A DNA stretch of 64,000 nt from an uncultured delta proteobacterium (lineage in GTDB: Bacteria > Desulfobacterota > Desulfomonilia > UBA1062): assembly GCA_963785235.1 (NCBI GenBank), contig CAWAUM010000012.1, positions 235,995 to 299,994 of the forward strand, read 5' to 3'. The notes beneath the pieces were generated by a model, which ran no database searches, was not told where the DNA came from, and saw nothing but the letters and a program-made list of their open reading frames with translations. The translations under genes and the position numbers were made by a program. Within the stretch, counting starts at the first letter, position 1, and every line of letters begins with the position of its first letter. Below are positions 43,530-61,541 of this stretch, piece by piece.

Positions 43530-43956
43530 CAGCTCACGCCCTTTCGCTCCACTTCCATTACATTTCTTCACTACGGTACGGGCTGATCGCCCTTGCAGCT
43601 CGCATCGGTTCGTCTTCCTGTGTCCTCCATTTGGACTTCTTCCTTGCATCAGACACCATTCCCACGTTCCGCATGAAAGCCTGTATCAGGCTCGCGCCAC
43701 CTTTCTGCCGGCCACCATCTGGGCAGTAAACAGAGTTCCCCCACACTCTATCCCCGATAACAAACCCGTTTCGATGACTCTGTATCTTTTCGACAGCTCA
43801 TCAGTGGTTCACTCTACGTTCGCCTTCCCTGGTCCGTACCTGATCCAAGATCTTGCCTCGCCTTTTCCTGGTCCGCATCACACCTGGGACTACCTTACAG
43901 CAAAATATCCGGTCCACGTGCCGCATCTATGGCTTGGTGCAACCTTCGTGGCGCAC
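43530..43956 (-). mobile_element. Degenerate group II intron fragment (domains I-III, internal deletion, no DV/DVI)
   Basis: Starts GTGCGCCACGAAGG; long stretches nearly identical to 57512-58023; retains EBS1 GTTATCG; 5' exon ends CTGCGATAAC. Confidence 0.85.
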
Positions 43957-44071
43957 GTTATCGCAGAGACCTCTAAGTTTTGACATACCTATTCTGTCAT
44001 AATTTTACCGCTTATTGAAGTCTGGTACAGTCCATAAGGGGGTCACTGTAAAACAGTCACTCTCTATTTCA

Positions 44072-54628: not shown

Positions 54629-56089
54629 ATGGCCAATGCTGTGACCTGCCTTAGCGTCAGTGAGTTGAACGAACGCGCCCGTGAAGCCTTGAGTGCGGGG
54701 CTGGGGCCCGATGTCTGGGTAGTTGGTGAGATCCACGGGTTGAAGGCCCATGCAAAATCCGGCCATATATACTTCGACCTCGTGGAGAAGCCCGCTACTG
54801 CCTCGGACCAGTACATCGCAAAGGTGAGCTGCGCATTCTTCAGGGGCTCGTATGTGCCGTGGCAGAGATCGCTCTCATCGCTTGGAATACAGGGGTTCGA
54901 GCTGACGAGCGGCATAGCGGTCAAACTCAGGGCAAGGGTCGACCTCTTTGTAAAAGAAGGCCGCTACCAGCTCATCGTCAGCGAGATTGACCCGAGCTAT
55001 ACCCTGGGCGCCATTGCCAGGCGCAGGGCACAGACCATCGAGACCATGAAGGCTGGGGGCCTCATGGAGAGAAACAAGGTCCTGGAGCTGAGCGCGGTCC
55101 CGTTACATATCGGCCTGATCACCTCCAGGGGTTCTGCCGCCTACCAGGACTTCACCAGCATCATCTTAAAATGCGGTTTTTCATTCCGTATTACTCTCTA
55201 TGATGCGCACATGCAGGGTGAGAGCACCATTAAAGAGGTGACCCAGGGTATCAGGGCACTTGAAAAATACCCGGAAGTGGATGCTATCGTCATCATCAGG
55301 GGCGGCGGCGCCAAGACAGACCTGTTCGTATTTGATGACATCGGCCTCTGCCGGGCAATAGCAACTTGCTCCAAACCTGTTTTCACCGGCATCGGCCATG
55401 AGATCGACCTGTCAGTGGCGGACATGGTGGCGCACAGTTACTTTGTCACCCCTACCGATGCGGCGCGTTTTTTTGTCTCTCAGGTGGAAGGCGTCTGTTC
55501 ATTTCTGGAAGATGCTGCTGCCTCCCTTAATTATTCAGCCCTGAACGCCCTGAACAAATCATCTGGGCGCCTCGGTCTGGCGGCAACCCGCCTCGCCTTC
55601 CTTTCCCAGAGATACTCATCCCGGGCACGCTCCGCCCTGGAGGCTGCTGCATCTGCGTTATTGACCAATGGCCTTACCATGATGGCCACCCATGACAGAC
55701 GACTTCTGAAGGTGCTGTCCGCCTTTATTCATCAGGCAACTGCAGCCATTCATGCCCAGTCGTCAATCCTTGATCAGGCGTTTTTCGGATTGAAGCTCAA
55801 CTCATCAGCGTTCCTGAAACACCTTGGGACAGAACTTCAACGCCGTCACGCCCTCATGCTCAAGGAGATCTCCGACGGCCTTGCCGAAAACCTGAAGACC
55901 CTGACAGGTTATGAAAAAGAGCTTCATCTTCTCGAGCCTGGCGTTACCCTGCAAAGGGGGTACAGCATCACGCTGGATAAAACGGGCAGGGCTTTATGCG
56001 ATTCCAGCGATGTAGCCAGGGATGACCGCATCACAACCCTGCTCGCAAAGGGAAAGATCCACTCTGTGGTATACACAAAGGAGCCATGA
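54629..56089 (+). CDS. xseA: Exodeoxyribonuclease VII large subunit
   Basis: WVVGEI, SGHIYF, RGGG, TGIGHEID, TPT, LQRGYS. Confidence 0.93.
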   Translation: MANAVTCLSVSELNERAREALSAGLGPDVWVVGEIHGLKAHAKSGHIYFDLVEKPATASDQYIAKVSCAFFRGSYVPWQRSLSSLGIQGFELTSGIAVKLRARVDLFVKEGRYQLIVSEIDPSYTLGAIARRRAQTIETMKAGGLMERNKVLELSAVPLHIGLITSRGSAAYQDFTSIILKCGFSFRITLYDAHMQGESTIKEVTQGIRALEKYPEVDAIVIIRGGGAKTDLFVFDDIGLCRAIATCSKPVFTGIGHEIDLSVADMVAHSYFVTPTDAARFFVSQVEGVCSFLEDAAASLNYSALNALNKSSGRLGLAATRLAFLSQRYSSRARSALEAAASALLTNGLTMMATHDRRLLKVLSAFIHQATAAIHAQSSILDQAFFGLKLNSSAFLKHLGTELQRRHALMLKEISDGLAENLKTLTGYEKELHLLEPGVTLQRGYSITLDKTGRALCDSSDVARDDRITTLLAKGKIHSVVYTKEP

Positions 56090-56319
56090 CAAAGATGAAA
56101 AAAGCAAAGGGATATTCGGACGTATTGAAGGAGCTCGAAGAAACGCTGGAGCGGATGAACCGCGGCGAGATCCCCATTGACGAACTGGAGGAGGCCATCA
56201 AGTCGGCGGCCCAGAAGATCCGCTACCTGCGCGACAAGCTCAAGGCCACCGAGGCCGAGATCGTGAAGGTGCTCCGGGAAATCGAAGGTGAGTCGCTAAA
56301 AACAGACGAAGGAAAATAG
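56086..56319 (+). CDS. xseB: Exodeoxyribonuclease VII small subunit
   Basis: Short helical protein overlapping the xseA stop; LEETLERM..GEIPIDEL. Confidence 0.88.
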   Translation: MTKMKKAKGYSDVLKELEETLERMNRGEIPIDELEEAIKSAAQKIRYLRDKLKATEAEIVKVLREIEGESLKTDEGK

Positions 56320-56364
56320 TATGCCTTCGTAGAGGCTTATACGCATAGGGTCCGACACAAGATC

Positions 56365-56413
56365 TTCAGTTTTCAGACTTCCTAAAACTGAATAGAAAGC
56401 GCAGTTATCTTCA
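56365..56413. repeat. Degenerate ~50-bp direct repeat, copy A
   Basis: TTCAGTTTTCAGACTTCCTAAAACTGAATAGAAAGCGCAGTTATCTTCA; similar to 58728-58776. Confidence 0.6.
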
Positions 56414-56731
56414 CCGTGGCAGAACCCAGTGATACTTACCTTTAGGCTTAGCTGTCTTCATCTGCCTTTCTCTGGCAGTATTTGCAAACCTACTGATATA
56501 TCCCATTTTTCCCTGCCACTTGAGCATCTCCCTGCAACACCATACAATATCATCTTTGAGATCACATTGGATTTCACTTACCAGCTCTCCATTCTTGAAC
56601 AACTGGCAGTGGTATTTCCCTGCTATGGTGGTTACCTTTACTTCATGTTTAGGCTCAACATACTCTTCCAGATGTTTTTTCTGTTTGGCAATATGTCTTC
56701 TGATAAATGATGCTATGTCTTTGATATTCAT
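56411..56731 (-). CDS. Hypothetical protein (AT-rich island)
   Basis: 106-aa ORF with GAAAGGTG RBS; no recognised motif. Confidence 0.55.
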   Translation of the reverse strand: MNIKDIASFIRRHIAKQKKHLEEYVEPKHEVKVTTIAGKYHCQLFKNGELVSEIQCDLKDDIVWCCREMLKWQGKMGYISRFANTARERQMKTAKPKGKYHWVLPR

Positions 56732-56871
56732 GACATCACCTTTCCAACACCAACTATGTCAATTATTTCACTTGAGATCATAAAGCCTGTCTGGAGTATA
56801 CTGAATATCGTTAAAAGCATAGGTATTACTGCATGTTCTCTGGTTGAGAGTCCTGGCATGGAACCGTTGAG

Positions 56872-57144
56872 TCATTGACCATTGCATTTATATTGTTTTT
56901 TCATCCGGAAGATTGTGAAATGAGTAGGACAAGTGCAAAATTGATTAGAGCCGTAACTTATTCGATATGAACAATTTTCAGGTTCTTTAGACTTTAGGTC
57001 TAAGACGTAAGGTTCAATAGCATAGTTAACTTTACACATCTTGTGTTCACCACACATGCCAAATTCCAGGCAGGAGAATGAGTGGGGGCACTTGGTTGTT
57101 ACATTTAAGATCTCAACAGGCACAATAATAGACATATATTCCAT
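56872..57144 (-). CDS. Small cysteine-rich hypothetical protein
   Basis: AGGAG RBS; C-x5-C-x5-C-x5-C ... C-x11-CTCP pattern. Confidence 0.6.
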   Translation of the reverse strand: MEYMSIIVPVEILNVTTKCPHSFSCLEFGMCGEHKMCKVNYAIEPYVLDLKSKEPENCSYRISYGSNQFCTCPTHFTIFRMKKQYKCNGQ

Positions 57145-57347
57145 CTCCTATACAACAATGAAATAGCATATTATAAGGCTATGAATATCATTAATATAAA
57201 AATTGATCAAGCTCCTGTGCCGAAAATTCAGCCGGAGTTGGAATCGATCCAAGGTTTCGTGTCACAGGACACGCTCTGGCATAAAGTGATAATCTACATG
57301 TGTTTCAGCCTAAGATAATCGGTTCTAGGGTCTTTAAAAAGCGCCAA

Positions 57348-58023
57348 GTCGAGTAGCGCAGGGGAATCGCACCCCCACGCCCTCACAGAACCGGACGTGA
57401 GACTCTCACCTCATCCGGCTCCTACTGTCCAGTCGCAGGTATTATACCAAACGACTTTGCCTTATCCATAAGCTCCTCCCATTGCTGGTTTACTCATAAA
57501 TAAGGTTGTACAGCTCAGCCCCTTCGCTCCACTTCCATTACAGAAGTTTCTTCACTACTACGGGCTGATCCGCCCCTGCGCTCTGCATCGGTACTCTCGT
57601 CTTCATGGGGCCTCCACTTCGACTTCTCCCTTAGCATCAGAGCGCCAGGTTCCCACGTTCCGCATGAAAGCCTGTACCAGGCTCGCGCCACCTTTCTGCC
57701 GGCCACCATCTGGGCAGTAAACAGGTTCCCCCCAGACTCTGTCCCGGGCCCGATAACAAAGCCCGGTTTCGATGACGTCTGTATCTTTTCGACAGCTCAT
57801 CAGTGGTTCACTCTCGTTCGCCTTCCTGGTCCTCACCTGACAAGGTCTTGCCTCGCCTTTTCCTGGTCCGCTCACCACCTGGGATCTTATCCCCACGCAG
57901 CGCCAGGCGGTTTGGGATCTGATCCTGTAACCCGATCCCGAGGGGCCTCCCCTCATCTTCCATGCAGCATGGCTGCTCCAATGTAGCCCTTACAGGCTAC
58001 TTCTTCGCGCCTTCGTGGCGCAC
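57348..58023 (-). mobile_element. Complete ORF-less group II intron (IIB, class D/RmInt1-like architecture)
   Basis: 5' GTGCG; DV GAGCCGGATGAGGTGAGAGTCTCACGTCCGGTTC (57421-57388) with AGC triad; DVI ending ACTCGAC; EBS1 GTTATCG pairs with 5' exon CGATAAC; DIV holds only an RBS and MDKAKSFGIIPATGQ*. Confidence 0.92.
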
Positions 58024-58036
58024 GTTATCGCAGTGA

Positions 58037-58534
58037 TCATAAAAGGTAGCCTATTTGGAGTGTTATGAAATTTTCACTGAAGTTCGATGTATCTGTCCAA
58101 TGGAATATCCCTTTCCCGTTAGAGAAGTGTTTATAACCAATCGAAAAGTCATATTTTTCTGTCCTTATGCCCAGTGCAGATCGGAACGCAAACTGAAGCC
58201 GTGTGCCTAGGTTGCTTGTAGTCCTTCTAAGGTAAGCACCGCCGGGTTCTAAGGAGATATACATTTTTCCATACAGGTTTATCCATATACCCTTGGTAAG
58301 AATGAGTGCATTGTTGTGATCCGGTCCATTCCATGATCCGAATGCCACATCATAATAACTTTTAAGACCAAATAGTTGTGGTGAATCTATTTGATAGCTG
58401 AGAAATATGGTCTGGGAATCTGTGGAGTAATATATACCCTGGCCACCTTCAAGAAATACGCCATCGGCGTATGCCGGTGTGGAGCAATAGAGAAGCACGG
58501 GGATAAGTACCGCAATCCAAATTCTCAAGCACAC
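58037..58534 (-). CDS. PagL-like lipid A deacylase / acyloxyacyl hydrolase beta-barrel
   Basis: Signal peptide, LGTRLQF, YKHFSNG (H-x-S-N), terminal IGYLL beta strand. Confidence 0.75.
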   Translation of the reverse strand: MCLRIWIAVLIPVLLYCSTPAYADGVFLEGGQGIYYSTDSQTIFLSYQIDSPQLFGLKSYYDVAFGSWNGPDHNNALILTKGIWINLYGKMYISLEPGGAYLRRTTSNLGTRLQFAFRSALGIRTEKYDFSIGYKHFSNGKGIFHWTDTSNFSENFITLQIGYLL

Positions 58535-58727
58535 TATCCTTAATAAATCCTAGGAAGTCAGATAAACATTTAAGTAATAATCTTGTAACCATCTGATATC
58601 ATTAATTTCAGCTTTCTGCAAACTGACCTTTGCAGGGTATTACACAATGATTTGGTCAAAACTGATGGGTGACAGAACCAGCTCTCTCACCTGTAGCCTG
58701 AATACCATAGATTAAAAAAACAATATA

Positions 58728-58776
58728 TTCAGTTTTCAGCCTTCTCAAAACCGTGACGATATCGCAGTTATATTCA
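58728..58776. repeat. Degenerate ~50-bp direct repeat, copy B
   Basis: TTCAGTTTTCAGCCTTCTCAAAACCGTGACGATATCGCAGTTATATTCA. Confidence 0.6.
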
Positions 58777-58843
58777 GTATGAGGAAAATAGTTAAGCGAC
58801 AAAATAATTGTAAATTGAATATATTTGATTCATAAGATATCTC

Positions 58844-59977
58844 ATGAAAGTGCTTCACCTTTTAAGTGACTGGAAGTGGACAGGGTCTTCTGAACCTGTA
58901 GTTTCACTTTGTGAGGCCCTCGCAGCAGAAGACGTCGATGTAACCATTGCATATAGAAAAACACCCGCCCATCGTGTTAACGTGAACTCTGTCGAGAAAG
59001 AGGTTAAAAAGAGGGGGGTCCCTTATTACGAAGGGTTCAGGCTTAATCGGTATTTTTCTTTGAGAGACTGCCTTCATGACATGATATACATAAAGCGTTA
59101 TGTCGAAAATGAAGGCGTGGATATTGTCCATACCAACCTCTCCCATGACCACTTCATTGCATTGCTTTCGCTTCAATTCTGCAAAAAAAGACCCCTGATA
59201 ATAAGAACAGACCATAAAAGGGACGGTTTTTCTAAAGCACCTTTCATGAAATGGGCATTATTCGAAACCGATGGTCTGGTGGCATACAGTAGAAAGATCA
59301 TTGAACACGACATAACAACATTCGGGTACCCTGTCGAAAAGACATGCATCATCCCATCTGGTGTTAAACGGTTTGAGGGCGAGATAGAAGATAAATGTCA
59401 TGAATTACATATCGATGCTAATGATAAAGTAATCGGGGTCGTGGGGAGACTGAAAAAGGAACGAGGATATGATACCATCTTCAAGGCATTCAAACGGGTG
59501 AGAGATCGTATCGTGAATGTGAAACTTCTTGTCCTGGGGAGAGGCAGTCCCCAGGATGAATCAATCGTACATAATTTAATTGAAGACCTGGGGATTGGAA
59601 ACGATGTAATACTGGCAGGGTATCGGTCGGATGATTATTTCTCTCTGATTTCGTCATTTGATGTTTTTGTCATGATGAGGGCAGGAACCGATGGGACAGC
59701 CAGGGCTTTAAGGGAGGTGATGTCCATGGGGGTACCTTCTGTCGTGTCGGATCTTGGCATGCTGCCTGAGCTTGTGGATGATGGGATCAATGGTTTTGTG
59801 GTGAAGCCACAAGAACATATACTTGCGGAAAATATCATTGAGTTGCTTTTAGATGATAAAAAGAGACAAATCTTTGGAAAAGATGCAAAAGAGACCGCAC
59901 AAAGTAAATGGAATTATAAGAACCAAGCAGTAACCATGATGAATTTTTACAAAGAACTCTTAAATCCAATAAGGTGA
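58844..59977 (+). CDS. GT4-family glycosyltransferase
   Basis: MKVLHL, VVGRLKKERG, EVMSMGVPSVVSDLG, ELVDDGINGF. Confidence 0.9.
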   Translation: MKVLHLLSDWKWTGSSEPVVSLCEALAAEDVDVTIAYRKTPAHRVNVNSVEKEVKKRGVPYYEGFRLNRYFSLRDCLHDMIYIKRYVENEGVDIVHTNLSHDHFIALLSLQFCKKRPLIIRTDHKRDGFSKAPFMKWALFETDGLVAYSRKIIEHDITTFGYPVEKTCIIPSGVKRFEGEIEDKCHELHIDANDKVIGVVGRLKKERGYDTIFKAFKRVRDRIVNVKLLVLGRGSPQDESIVHNLIEDLGIGNDVILAGYRSDDYFSLISSFDVFVMMRAGTDGTARALREVMSMGVPSVVSDLGMLPELVDDGINGFVVKPQEHILAENIIELLLDDKKRQIFGKDAKETAQSKWNYKNQAVTMMNFYKELLNPIR

Positions 59978-60398
59978 TTGGCCTTTCCCCCTTTGACTAG
60001 GCTTCAACTTTGTTTAGTATGTAACATCATTATCCATGTCTTTATGTTTCATCGATAGTATCTATCCTGTGTCAAAATGTGGGATTTGAAAAAAGAGAAT
60101 CCATGTGAAGAGTTCGTGCGAAAATCAAAGCTTTGTTCATACTGAATATTTCTTTTGATAATCTTCACAAGTAAATGGACAGGTGAGGAATATGTTTCAA
60201 TAATTGATATTACGACCAACATTGAATATACCCGCAATGACTTAAAGTCTTCTCAAAGCCTCTCTCTTCAAGGTACCATTATATGATCAAAACTGCCTGC
60301 CTTTTCATCAGCAGTTCTCCATAAAAGTTCTTATCCGAATCCATTATGCATCATCGCTCTAATTGACCCTTTGCACAAAGGTCTGCTATAGGGACACC

Positions 60399-61541
60399 AT
60401 GAATCCATCCCGCACCGCCCAAACCATAGCACCTTTTCTGGTCATGGATGTTATGGAAAAGGCCAACACCCTTGCCGCCTCAGGCAGGGACATCATCCAC
60501 CTGGAGGTGGGCGAGCCTGATTTCGACACCCCGGAGTGCATCCGCATGGCAGCGGCAAATGCCATGCATAAGGGCAAAACCCACTACACAGAATCGCTGG
60601 GTATTCCCGAACTCAGGCATGCCCTGAGCGCACATTATAAAAAGACCTATGGCGTCACCATTGATACGGAATGCATTGTTGTCACTGCAGGCTCGTCGCC
60701 AGCACTCCTCATGGCCATATCGTGCCTCGTAGATGCAGGTGACGAGGTCATGATGACCGACCCGTACTATGCCTGCTACCCGAACTTCGTCAAGGTCCTG
60801 GGCGCCAAACCCCGCCTCATCCGCACCGGGAGTTCGGACAGATTCCAGCTGGACCCGGTCAAGGTAAAACAGACCATAACCGGTAAAACCAAGGCCCTGA
60901 TCATCAACTCGCCTGCCAACCCCACGGGTGTCTGCCTTGACGCAGATCACCTGAAGGCCTTAGGCAAGCTGCCCATCCCCATCATATCCGACGAGATCTA
61001 CCACGGGCTGGTTTATGCAGGCGAGCAGCACACCATACTCGAGTACACGGATAATGCCATTACCATCAACGGTTTCTCCAAGGCCTATGCCATGACAGGC
61101 TGGAGGCTGGGCTGGGCCATCTTCCCCAAGGCACTGATCCGTACGGCCCAGAAGATCCAGCAGAACCTCATGATCTGCGCCCCGTCCATTGCCCAGTGGG
61201 GTGGTGTGGCGGCACTCACAAAGGCAGGTGCGGATGTGGAGAACATGCATCAGATATTTGCAGGTCGAAGGAAGGTCATGCTTGCCGAGATGAGAAAGTA
61301 CGGTTTCAACGTTGAGGTGGAGCCCACCGGGGCCTTTTACGTACTGGTGAACATGGGCTCTTTCACCAAGGACTCCCGCCTGTTTGCCATGGATATCCTG
61401 GAGCATACAGGTGTGGGTGTCACCCCGGGTATTGATTTCGGACCAGGGGCGCAAGGATATATCCGCTTTTCTTACGCCAACTCGGAGAAGAACATCATTG
61501 AAGGCATCTCCCGCGTTGCAACATATCTGAAAAGCCTATGA
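60399..61541 (+). CDS. PLP-dependent aminotransferase class I/II
   Basis: GEPDF, NSPANPTG, SDEIY, FSKAYAMTGWRLG. Confidence 0.95.
   Translation: MNPSRTAQTIAPFLVMDVMEKANTLAASGRDIIHLEVGEPDFDTPECIRMAAANAMHKGKTHYTESLGIPELRHALSAHYKKTYGVTIDTECIVVTAGSSPALLMAISCLVDAGDEVMMTDPYYACYPNFVKVLGAKPRLIRTGSSDRFQLDPVKVKQTITGKTKALIINSPANPTGVCLDADHLKALGKLPIPIISDEIYHGLVYAGEQHTILEYTDNAITINGFSKAYAMTGWRLGWAIFPKALIRTAQKIQQNLMICAPSIAQWGGVAALTKAGADVENMHQIFAGRRKVMLAEMRKYGFNVEVEPTGAFYVLVNMGSFTKDSRLFAMDILEHTGVGVTPGIDFGPGAQGYIRFSYANSEKNIIEGISRVATYLKSL

Follow-up and report, generated by a model that had tools for sequence, protein, structure and literature searches.

To our knowledge, only integrons and, as a more recent addition, dif modules have been well described as systems in which promoter-independent gene modules are stockpiled and shuffled at short sites. 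Intergenic repeats of other kinds, such as REP/BIME, ERIC and the Neisseria NIME and Correia elements, are lineage-specific, number from tens to a hundred copies, cluster in variable regions and are targets of specialised mobile elements. In integrons, introns of the group IIC-attC type occupy the attC bottom strand, in the orientation opposite to that of the cassette genes (PMC3001079). The Acinetobacter plasmid dif (pdif) modules, which depend on XerC/XerD, are bounded by 28-bp XerC-spacer-XerD sites in alternating orientation (excerpt of PMC13141974), and these sites are targeted by specialised mobile elements of the IS1202 family (excerpt of PMC10132070). Two further reports, on IIB introns in integrons (PMC7923331) and on a groEL stop-codon intron (PMC12584367), give examples of introns with a dedicated target, be it a recombination site or a fixed motif.

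The locus considered here lies in a 64,000-nt stretch of DNA (the window) from an uncultured member of the Desulfomonilia. A variable island extends from the stop codon of xseB to the promoter of an aminotransferase gene (56328–60346, the gene itself at 60363–61541). The initial annotation had described an array of degenerate ~50-bp direct repeats punctuating cargo genes, one of them the target of a group II intron, and had read it as a gene-capture array; the observation is partly confirmed and the interpretation partly supported. The repeats, their cargo and the intron all lie on the minus strand. Repeat A (core 56357–56413) and repeat B (core 58720–58776, with an extension to ~58640) form a 57-nt direct repeat with 77% identity (44/57). 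Removal of the intron does rebuild a third site, which aligns without gaps to B at 35 of 57 positions, rather than the 32 of 51 counted earlier, and to A at 32 of 57; the best identity to B was 33 among 200,000 random 57-mers from the genome and 31 among 50,000 AT-rich ones. The proposed length proved too short, as conservation extends to ~+100–120 in most copies. A and the rebuilt site were both said to begin at the stop codon of a gene: the first triplet of A is the stop (56411–56413) of a 106-aa ORF, and in the rebuilt site the stop of a PagL-like ORF (58037–58039) falls within the left part. A weaker candidate repeat at 56794–56840 gave no HMM match even at E ≤ 100.

Between site A and the interrupted site lies a two-gene module (56411–57144) consisting of the 106-aa ORF (56411–56731) and a 90-aa ORF (56872–57144), neither of which matched a Pfam or NCBIfam family. 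In the relative G011 the two ORFs travel jointly as a single module between two sites on a different contig, with 91% identity. The right part of the interrupted site (~57310–57347) is followed by a 60-nt extension (~57250–57309; 57250–57347 in all) that is absent from the orthologous G011 site. The ORF-less group II intron (676 nt, 57348–58023) begins with GTGCGCC and contains domains V–VI, and its IBS is the left part of the site (58024–58042, ending ..GATCACTGCGATAAC), which also holds the PagL-like stop codon. The PagL-like ORF (lipid A 3-O-deacylase family, 165 aa, 58037–58534) is the cargo between B (58640–58776) and the interrupted site; it has a paralog at C1:516951–517584 (88%), and in G011 (contig C70) the right part and extension of site B are inherited together with the PagL gene. 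A truncated and diverged intron copy is located at ~43530–43956, and the stretch proposed as a further site, 43957–43975, is the left part of a site forming the 5’ exon of this copy (43530–43975 together).

A, B and the rebuilt site are members of a lineage-specific site family in peat and sediment Desulfomonilia. The profile scan suggested by the initial annotation was carried out, and the site HMM gave 42 matches at E ≤ 0.01 in this genome (G000) against none in the reversed genome; seven trial exact patterns each caught just 1–3 places in the same genome. Overall this genome holds ~40–50 copies, and counts per genome were 50 for G000 and, among four congeners, 67 for G002, 82 for G003, 109 for G004 and 60 for G011, with none in G012 and one in G009. 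The site was absent from all 16 genomes searched in the sister family. All genomes are MAGs, and the loci in relatives were selected for holding sites. The core measures ~57 nt and contains the invariant block CTGCGAT; in many copies an extension of 60–80 nt comes after it. Both the consensus and the breakpoint mapping drew on 160 of the ~440 sites in the genus. The left part spans ~19 nt (GAT..CTGCGATwnn) and the right part ~38 nt (..GTTTT-N10-AAAAC.GATGATCTTG). The 60-nt extension, flanked by CTT(A)G..CTTG, behaves as an optional insert. Left parts also occur by themselves: a pattern search gave 36 matches against 2 in the control, of which 13 lie beside HMM sites and 2 form the 5’ exons of the two intron copies, while the other 21 are isolated, mostly in long open frames with ~4 non-coding. 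Three other identities for the repeat were considered and rejected. The consensus has stops in several frames and is not a coding repeat; a sigma-54 promoter in the extension (TGGCAC-N5-..) lacks the GC of the -12 element and has a misfitting spacing; and for a structured RNA no consensus fold was found, nor any Rfam family at E ≤ 1 in 56200–58900 except the intron.

The expected array arrangement was evident, with 75 same-strand and 14 opposite-strand pairs among neighbouring sites up to 10 kb apart and a median spacing of 1.4–1.9 kb, typically ~1.5 kb. As had also been proposed, these same-strand arrays surround variable, AT-rich accessory genes. Gene orientation within the bracketed modules is mixed, and the cargo includes ordinary-looking operons encoding a two-component system, an ABC efflux pump and an SDR. 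The arrays resemble integron arrays and CALINs, in which short head-to-tail sites bound cargo that is small, variable and frequently AT-rich, every site combines parts belonging to two different cassettes, and a dedicated group II intron lineage resides in the sites. Unlike in integrons, the sites have neither an attC hairpin nor R’’/R’ cores and are not linked to IntI; in addition, the longer of the two site parts is located 5’ of same-strand cargo, and modules may hold several genes in either orientation.

Cargo shuffling, anticipated by the initial annotation, was observed between genomes: the same modules occupy different arrays in different genomes, and homology breaks inside the site, within a window of a few bases directly after CTGCGAT. 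Three xseB-linked sites (A and the C11 site of G000, and the C243 site of G011) have their right part in common; for the left part of A, the match in G011 is the site located after the 106-aa ORF at another place in that genome. At the interrupted site, the right part segregates with the 90-aa ORF and the left part with PagL. Where the upstream flanks of two sites were at least 88% alike and the downstream DNA differed, seven of nine pairs lost homology at −6 to +27 of the site start, and the two exceptions ended 45–68 nt before the site; one further pair ended ~10 nt to the right of the usual breakpoint and another differed throughout the left part. One site in G003 is a clean hybrid: its left part is that of one G004 locus, its right part that of a second G004 locus, and the two meet at CTGCGATAA(C/A)|T. 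The contents of the xseB island differ among G000, its second copy in G000 (C11), G002 and G011: G002 has 917 nt of other DNA, and G011 and the C11 copy carry other cassettes with the xseB-linked half-site retained. In the congeners G007 and G014 the island is empty, with only 50–60 nt present. For solo sites, no clean orthologous pair of empty and filled loci was found, because both loci tried lie in variable contexts. A search of public sequencing runs matched 24; one contained 78% of the query words, and the matches in the rest were mainly to the intron. Short Logan contigs (150–600 nt) from four public runs included no site-to-site joint, circle or intron-less allele, an outcome that carries no weight for or against excision.

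The intron scored 106 bits against RF01999 and 62.9 bits against RF00029, and displays the features of bacterial group II introns, namely a 5’ GUGCG, domain V/VI, EBS1–IBS1 pairing and, in full copies, an RT/maturase. In G000 the pairing is between GTTATCG in the EBS1 loop and CGATAAC in the 5’ exon, and in G002 a compensatory change is present, with EBS1 TTTATCG opposite exon CGATAAA. Together with this change, the position of all ten close copies directly after ..CTKCGATWNN bears out the earlier description of a site-specialised intron, and the insertion point coincides with the module breakpoints. The target is recognised through the 7-nt EBS1, and probably through EBS2 as well. The intron would retrohome to the exchange point through EBS1–IBS1 pairing with CGATAAC and, by homing there, would be a parasite of the site. 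No RT gene was found in the G000 assembly; copies in the congener G002 encode a 417-aa IEP with RVT_1 and GIIM domains, and the ORF-less intron may be mobilised in trans by the RT/maturase of such full-length copies. Like other site-specialised group II introns, this lineage is restricted to one kind of repeated target outside genes. It differs from them in its new target family, in the use of 7-nt EBS1 pairing instead of a DNA stem-loop and in the predominance of ORF-less copies. Assignment as a group IIC-attC intron was rejected, since its target is a site other than attC and it shares its strand with the three cassette ORFs.

Linkage of the sites to one tyrosine recombinase family, which the initial annotation had expected, was not borne out, as no tested recombinase family tracks the sites. 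A FimB-like integrase of 205 aa is confined to G000, G011 and G003 and does not follow site number, and neither does IntI, present in 9 of the 25 genomes searched. The Y1 HUH transposase (Y1_Tnp, RAYT-type) does not track the sites, nor does the Y2 HUH transposase (Y2_Tnp), seen in G002 only, or serine recombinases/resolvases, of which G000 has none. XerC and XerD are the sole recombinases common to all site-rich genomes examined, and XerCD is therefore the candidate enzyme, by elimination only. The host XerD scored 379.6 bits on TIGR02225 (cut-off 329.6), and the XerC-like protein 304 bits on TIGR02224, below the cut-off of 335. A candidate host dif, CCGATAA-TATATG-TTATGTTAAAT, is present as a single copy in 12 of the 15 genomes of the genus. 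The likeness of the sites to dif is weak: they share only CGAT(AA) of the XerC arm and have an invariant TTT where the XerD arm has ATG. The site consensus does not have the layout of a Xer site (11-bp XerC arm, 6–8 bp spacer and 11-bp TTATGTTAAAT-like XerD arm), and no dyad-symmetric arms surround the inferred crossover in the consensus of 160 sites. As in pdif modules, short sites bound accessory modules that are shuffled between replicons and carry no recombinase of their own; unlike pdif, the sites are direct repeats of ~57 nt, are chromosomal in Desulfomonilia and have nothing of the XerD arm.

The explanation that we consider somewhat probable is an undescribed site-specific cassette system, in which a lineage-specific recombination-type site bounds modules and exchange is mediated by an enzyme. 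Along the chromosome, sites would follow one another head-to-tail, with one to four accessory genes in each module that they bound. A module would be made up of a site's right part, the cargo and the left part of the site that follows. Modules would be swapped from array to array and from genome to genome, the DNA being broken and joined within the few bases after CTGCGAT, the pattern of breakpoints that a recombinase with a fixed crossover would yield, and may be excised as a circle and re-inserted at another site.

The main rival, unlikely in our judgement but to be taken seriously, is a dispersed non-autonomous intergenic repeat (MITE/REP/ERIC-like) that accumulates in hypervariable, horizontally acquired regions, its shuffling resulting from transfer and from homologous or microhomology recombination at the best-conserved block, without a dedicated recombinase. 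The site has much in common with repeats of the REP/ERIC type, including a copy range of 0 to 109 among congeners, intergenic clustering in variable regions and targeting by specialised elements. The sites are spread over many contigs, frequently close to contig ends, and the same regions carry other small repeat families and an IS that inserts into the site extension, as expected of repeat-rich junk regions; the mixed cargo orientation and the lack of a correlated recombinase point the same way. However, no palindrome, terminal inverted repeats or conserved hairpin were found in the site, the RAYT-type transposase is not associated with it, and its left and right parts are passed on with different neighbours rather than as one unit. 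Sites are only 65–80% alike, and the invariant block, at 7 nt, is too short for RecA-type exchange. The strong same-strand bias also argues against a dispersed repeat.

The coincidence of breakpoints with the intron insertion point raises the possibility that the intron itself made the exchanges, homologous recombination between 676-nt copies in different sites having swapped the flanks and later intron loss having left hybrids. Introns 92–99% alike are present in multiple copies (at least six in G002), and some G002 copies have a site-like 5’ exon and a poorly site-like 3’ exon. This route is nevertheless improbable: precise intron loss is rare in bacteria, most sites have no matching IBS1 (A at position 18 in 29% and C at position 19 in 63% of 160 sites), intron-free hybrid sites exist in G011, and G000 has no RT gene. 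About as improbable is a regulatory or protein-binding role common to the sites, in which each, lying upstream of accessory genes, would be an operator, a promoter or a nucleoid-protein site with a GTTTT-N10-AAAAC dyad, conserved for expression and merely used by the intron. The TTT and AAAA are conserved without covariation, many modules open with a same-strand gene 225–370 nt downstream, and a promoter-like match lies inside B, but that match is specific to B, many of the sites are found between convergent genes or ahead of antisense genes, and breakpoints inside the site are left unexplained. Finally, the small cassettes in co-oriented arrays and the IntI encoded in the genome could suggest unusual attC sites served by that integrase (CALIN-type arrays). 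This is very improbable, the attC reading being contradicted by core, fold and co-occurrence tests. In agreement with the initial annotation, the consensus of 160 sites has no RYYYAAC/GTTRRRY pair, and the sites have no conserved hairpin. RNAalifold on 27 of 34 rows gave no consensus structure on either strand, and pairing in the central stem was 67.6% against 66.1% in shuffles. Single-stranded folds of 14 AT-rich sites had z-scores of −2.4 to +1.3, with 3 below −2, whereas the separate canonical integron of this genome, which has its own IntI, contains GC-rich attC hairpins with ..TAAC/GTT.. cores that reached −2.5, −2.5 and −4.1 in three correctly placed windows (+2.0 in a misplaced fourth). 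IntI and the sites are also dissociated, G003 having 82 sites without IntI, and G012 and G009 having IntI with 0 and 1 sites.

With the site-specific cassette system as the preferred reading, a fuller proposal can be put forward tentatively: a second, integrase-independent cassette system would exist beside the classical integron, with dozens of ~57-nt double-strand sites, a crossover fixed beside CTGCGAT, and either XerCD or an unrecognised enzyme as the host recombinase. Its modules would have their own 5’ leader and be excised and re-inserted, and a dedicated intron lineage and an IS would have specialised on the sites. The intron and the IS, each specialised on the site, would offer a natural case of convergent parasitism. 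With the site model, accessory-gene flux could be mined directly in metagenomes from peat and sediment, and the system is amenable to simple two-site plasmid assays. If true, this would be a third system, unrelated in sequence to the two described and chromosomal in an uncultured anaerobic lineage, implying that site-bounded cassette platforms evolved repeatedly.

The AT-rich stretch between xseA/xseB (54629–56319, plus strand) and a glycosyltransferase gene (58844–59977) has a GC content of 0.36–0.43, compared with 0.52–0.60 in its flanks, and carries a 57-nt direct repeat on the minus strand. The two intact copies, site A (56357–56413) and site B (58720–58776), are identical at 44 of 57 positions, and removal of a group II intron rebuilds a third site that matches B without gaps at 35 of 57 positions and A at 32. 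Random 57-mers from the source genome (n = 200,000) reached at most 33 matches to B, and AT-rich 57-mers (n = 50,000) at most 31. Read 5′ to 3′, the minus strand presents site B, a PagL-like ORF (165 aa), the intron-split site, two ORFs of 90 and 106 aa unassigned to any Pfam or NCBIfam family, and finally site A and the 3′ end of xseB. The repeats described in the initial annotation are real, and far larger in extent than was seen there; a weaker candidate at 56794–56840 fell away, with zero HMM matches even at E ≤ 100. The PagL-like gene has a paralog (88%) on another contig of the source genome (C1:516951–517584, locus L027), followed by a shortened site in which ~17 nt are absent after TGATC.

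A four-site HMM located 36 places in the source genome at E ≤ 0.06, and the profile scan proposed in the initial annotation, run with a refined HMM, returned 42 at E ≤ 0.01 and none in the reversed genome. Copy counts across genomes were taken from a sequence-only covariance model, which gave 50 matches in the source genome, 67, 82, 109 and 60 in the related genomes G002, G003, G004 and G011, and 0–18 in each remaining congener. Within the same family, six other genera had 1–4 matches and four had none, and the sister family had none in 16 of 16 genomes. Across 160 sites from five genomes, aligned in one register, CTGCGAT is near-invariant (73–98% per column), with GAT ahead of it and, ~10 nt beyond it, GTTTT-N10-AAAAC and GATGATCTTG. 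Most copies carry a further extension of 60–80 nt; it is lacking from the orthologous G011 site, and the comparison shows it as an insert with CTT(A)G on one side and CTTG on the other.

The intron (57348–58023, minus strand) is a 676-nt ORF-less group II element that matches RF01999 (106 bits) and RF00029 (62.9 bits). The source genome holds two full ORF-less copies that are 98.8% identical, and despite this no RVT_1 match was found in the whole genome (93% completeness). A truncated copy, 87% identical over the 5′ two-thirds, lies at 43530–43956 on the minus strand; the left part of the site still stands in front of it as its 5′ exon, at the position suspected (43957–43975), and CTGCGATAAC precedes all three copies. 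The proposed specialization of the intron for this site was borne out, with all ten close copies examined (three in the source genome, one in G004 and six in G002) sitting after ..CTKCGATWNN. The EBS1 loop is GTTATCG with exon CGATAAC in the source genome and TTTATCG with exon CGATAAA in four G002 copies, a compensatory change. Pairing of EBS1 is weaker in two G002 copies that bear an intron-encoded protein (IEP). The IEP, carried by full-length intron copies of G002 (L149:712–1965), has 417 aa with RVT_1 and GIIM domains and no endonuclease domain. According to PMC3001079, IIC-attC introns occupy the bottom strand, opposite to the cassette genes, whereas the intron of the window shares its strand with the cassette ORFs.

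Sites that neighbour each other within 10 kb mostly share a strand, with 75 same-strand pairs compared with 14 opposite-strand pairs (G000, the source genome, 13/1; G011 14/1; G002 10/2; G003 13/0; G004 25/10), the loci in relatives having been chosen for holding several sites and not by strand. Median spacing is 1.4–1.9 kb, and the modules between sites comprise 1–4 genes each, facing either way. Among the cargo are PagL, PilZ, GNAT, STAS, response regulators, a two-component pair, a PMT-type glycosyltransferase, ferredoxin, SDR, a PEP-CTERM protein, KaiB, MipA, an ABC/HlyD efflux set, a PASTA-repeat protein and LEA_2, along with several ORFs without a family; no recombinase was found among the scanned ORFs, which are a part of all cargo. 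A further repeat family of ~90 nt (TTTTCCATGCCCC.CTTTTTCGATGATTATC..), tandemly duplicated at L107:4540–4640, has dozens of matches in G003 and G004, often adjoins sites, and also lies upstream of sites at C1:390111 and C9:11648 of the source genome.

The xseB stop of G007 and G014 lies 50–60 nt from the promoter and start of the aminotransferase gene (window position 60363), and all of 56328–60346 is therefore extra DNA. The corresponding island of G002 is 917 nt of unrelated sequence with zero sites, and that of G011 has two sites and cargo unlike that of the window. A second copy of the xseB-end/aminotransferase locus, at a contig end of the source genome (C11:294724–299769, L014; 86–91% identity), has one site and one ORF unlike the window's, and the contig stops 60 nt into xseB-like sequence; this copy represents either a true segmental duplication or sequence of a second strain binned together with the first. 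All three site-bearing versions have the same half-site adjoining xseB.

Comparison of these versions places breakpoints inside the sites. The right part of A is common to the xseB-linked sites of G011 and C11, and its left part has its match on a different contig of G011, in the site after the 106-aa ORF; at the interrupted site, the right part travels with the 90-aa ORF in G011 and the left part with PagL. Nine pairs sharing only the upstream flank were obtained from 70 sites of the source genome and G011, to which two G003 and G004 loci were added. In five of eight pairs inspected, identity reaches a few bases from position 19|20 before falling to family level; one of the others differs over the entire left part and two are blurred by an upstream indel in the gapless comparison. 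With 160 sites of five genomes, nine upstream-flank pairs end at −68, −45, −6, +1, +6, +11, +15, +15 and +27 from the site start, the intron insertion point being +16. In G003, one site combines the sequences of two G004 loci in a clean hybrid whose joint lies at CTGCGATAA(C/A)|T. Excision itself was not directly visible in public contigs. Downstream-only homologies frequently start at +66 to +197, in part because of an IS5/IS1182-like element (L107:2700–4530, contig C6 of G004) that lies in the extension, encodes a DDE transposase of 502 aa and has ..GTTGAAAAAGC as its terminal inverted repeat. G004 has five copies of this element that are 97–99% identical and one at 86%, each inserted ~100 nt past the site start, within the extension.

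The source genome also possesses a classical chromosomal integron (C12:115395–126000, L016), outside the window and ~120 kb upstream of its start, in which intI (464 bits on TIGR02249, cut-off 265) heads a plus-strand array of small ORFs and GC-rich canonical attC sites whose cores are ..TAAC and GTT... Single-stranded folding of three integron attC windows gave z-scores of −2.5, −2.5 and −4.1 (a misplaced fourth gave +2.0), and 14 AT-rich sites gave −2.4 to +1.3, three of them below −2. RNAalifold, applied to 27 of 34 rows after seven atypical or duplicated rows were left out, yielded no consensus fold on either strand; the central stem seen in site A was 67.6% paired versus 66.1% in shuffles, with no covariation, and Rfam at E ≤ 1 matched only the intron. 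IntI does not track site number, G003 having 82 sites without IntI, and IntI being present in G012 (no sites) and G009 (one site). The attC reading, a minor rival that the initial annotation had already set aside, and a structured-RNA reading are excluded by these results.

Five tyrosine recombinases are encoded in the source genome (XerD, an XerC-like protein, IntI, a FimB-like protein and a 443-aa phage-type integrase), together with one IS110 and two Y1 transposases; serine recombinases are absent. The FimB-like protein (C5:581505–582122; L010:1506–2123), of 205 aa, has the size of FimB/FimE and the catalytic domain only; its gene lies 2 kb from a site, with close orthologs only in G011 and G003. 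The anticipated linkage to one recombinase family did not emerge, as no family tested across relatives tracks site number, and XerC/XerD remain candidates by elimination. A candidate chromosomal dif, CCGATAA-TATATG-TTATGTTAAAT (C5:398696–398722), comprising an XerC arm (..CCGATAA), a spacer (TATATG) and an XerD arm (TTATGTTAAAT), was found in a single copy in 12 of the 15 genus genomes. CGAT(AA) is common to this dif and the left part of the site; the XerD arm has no counterpart in the site. The putative junction falls at the arm/spacer border, the place at which XerC would cut. Xer involvement in recombination of the sites is a lead only.

That the sites are instead a dispersed repeat ranks second and is rather unlikely; intron-mediated exchange and a regulatory site are minor alternatives. 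Given the comparative breakpoints, a site-specific cassette system is favoured over these, and the sites somewhat more probably than otherwise constitute such a system.
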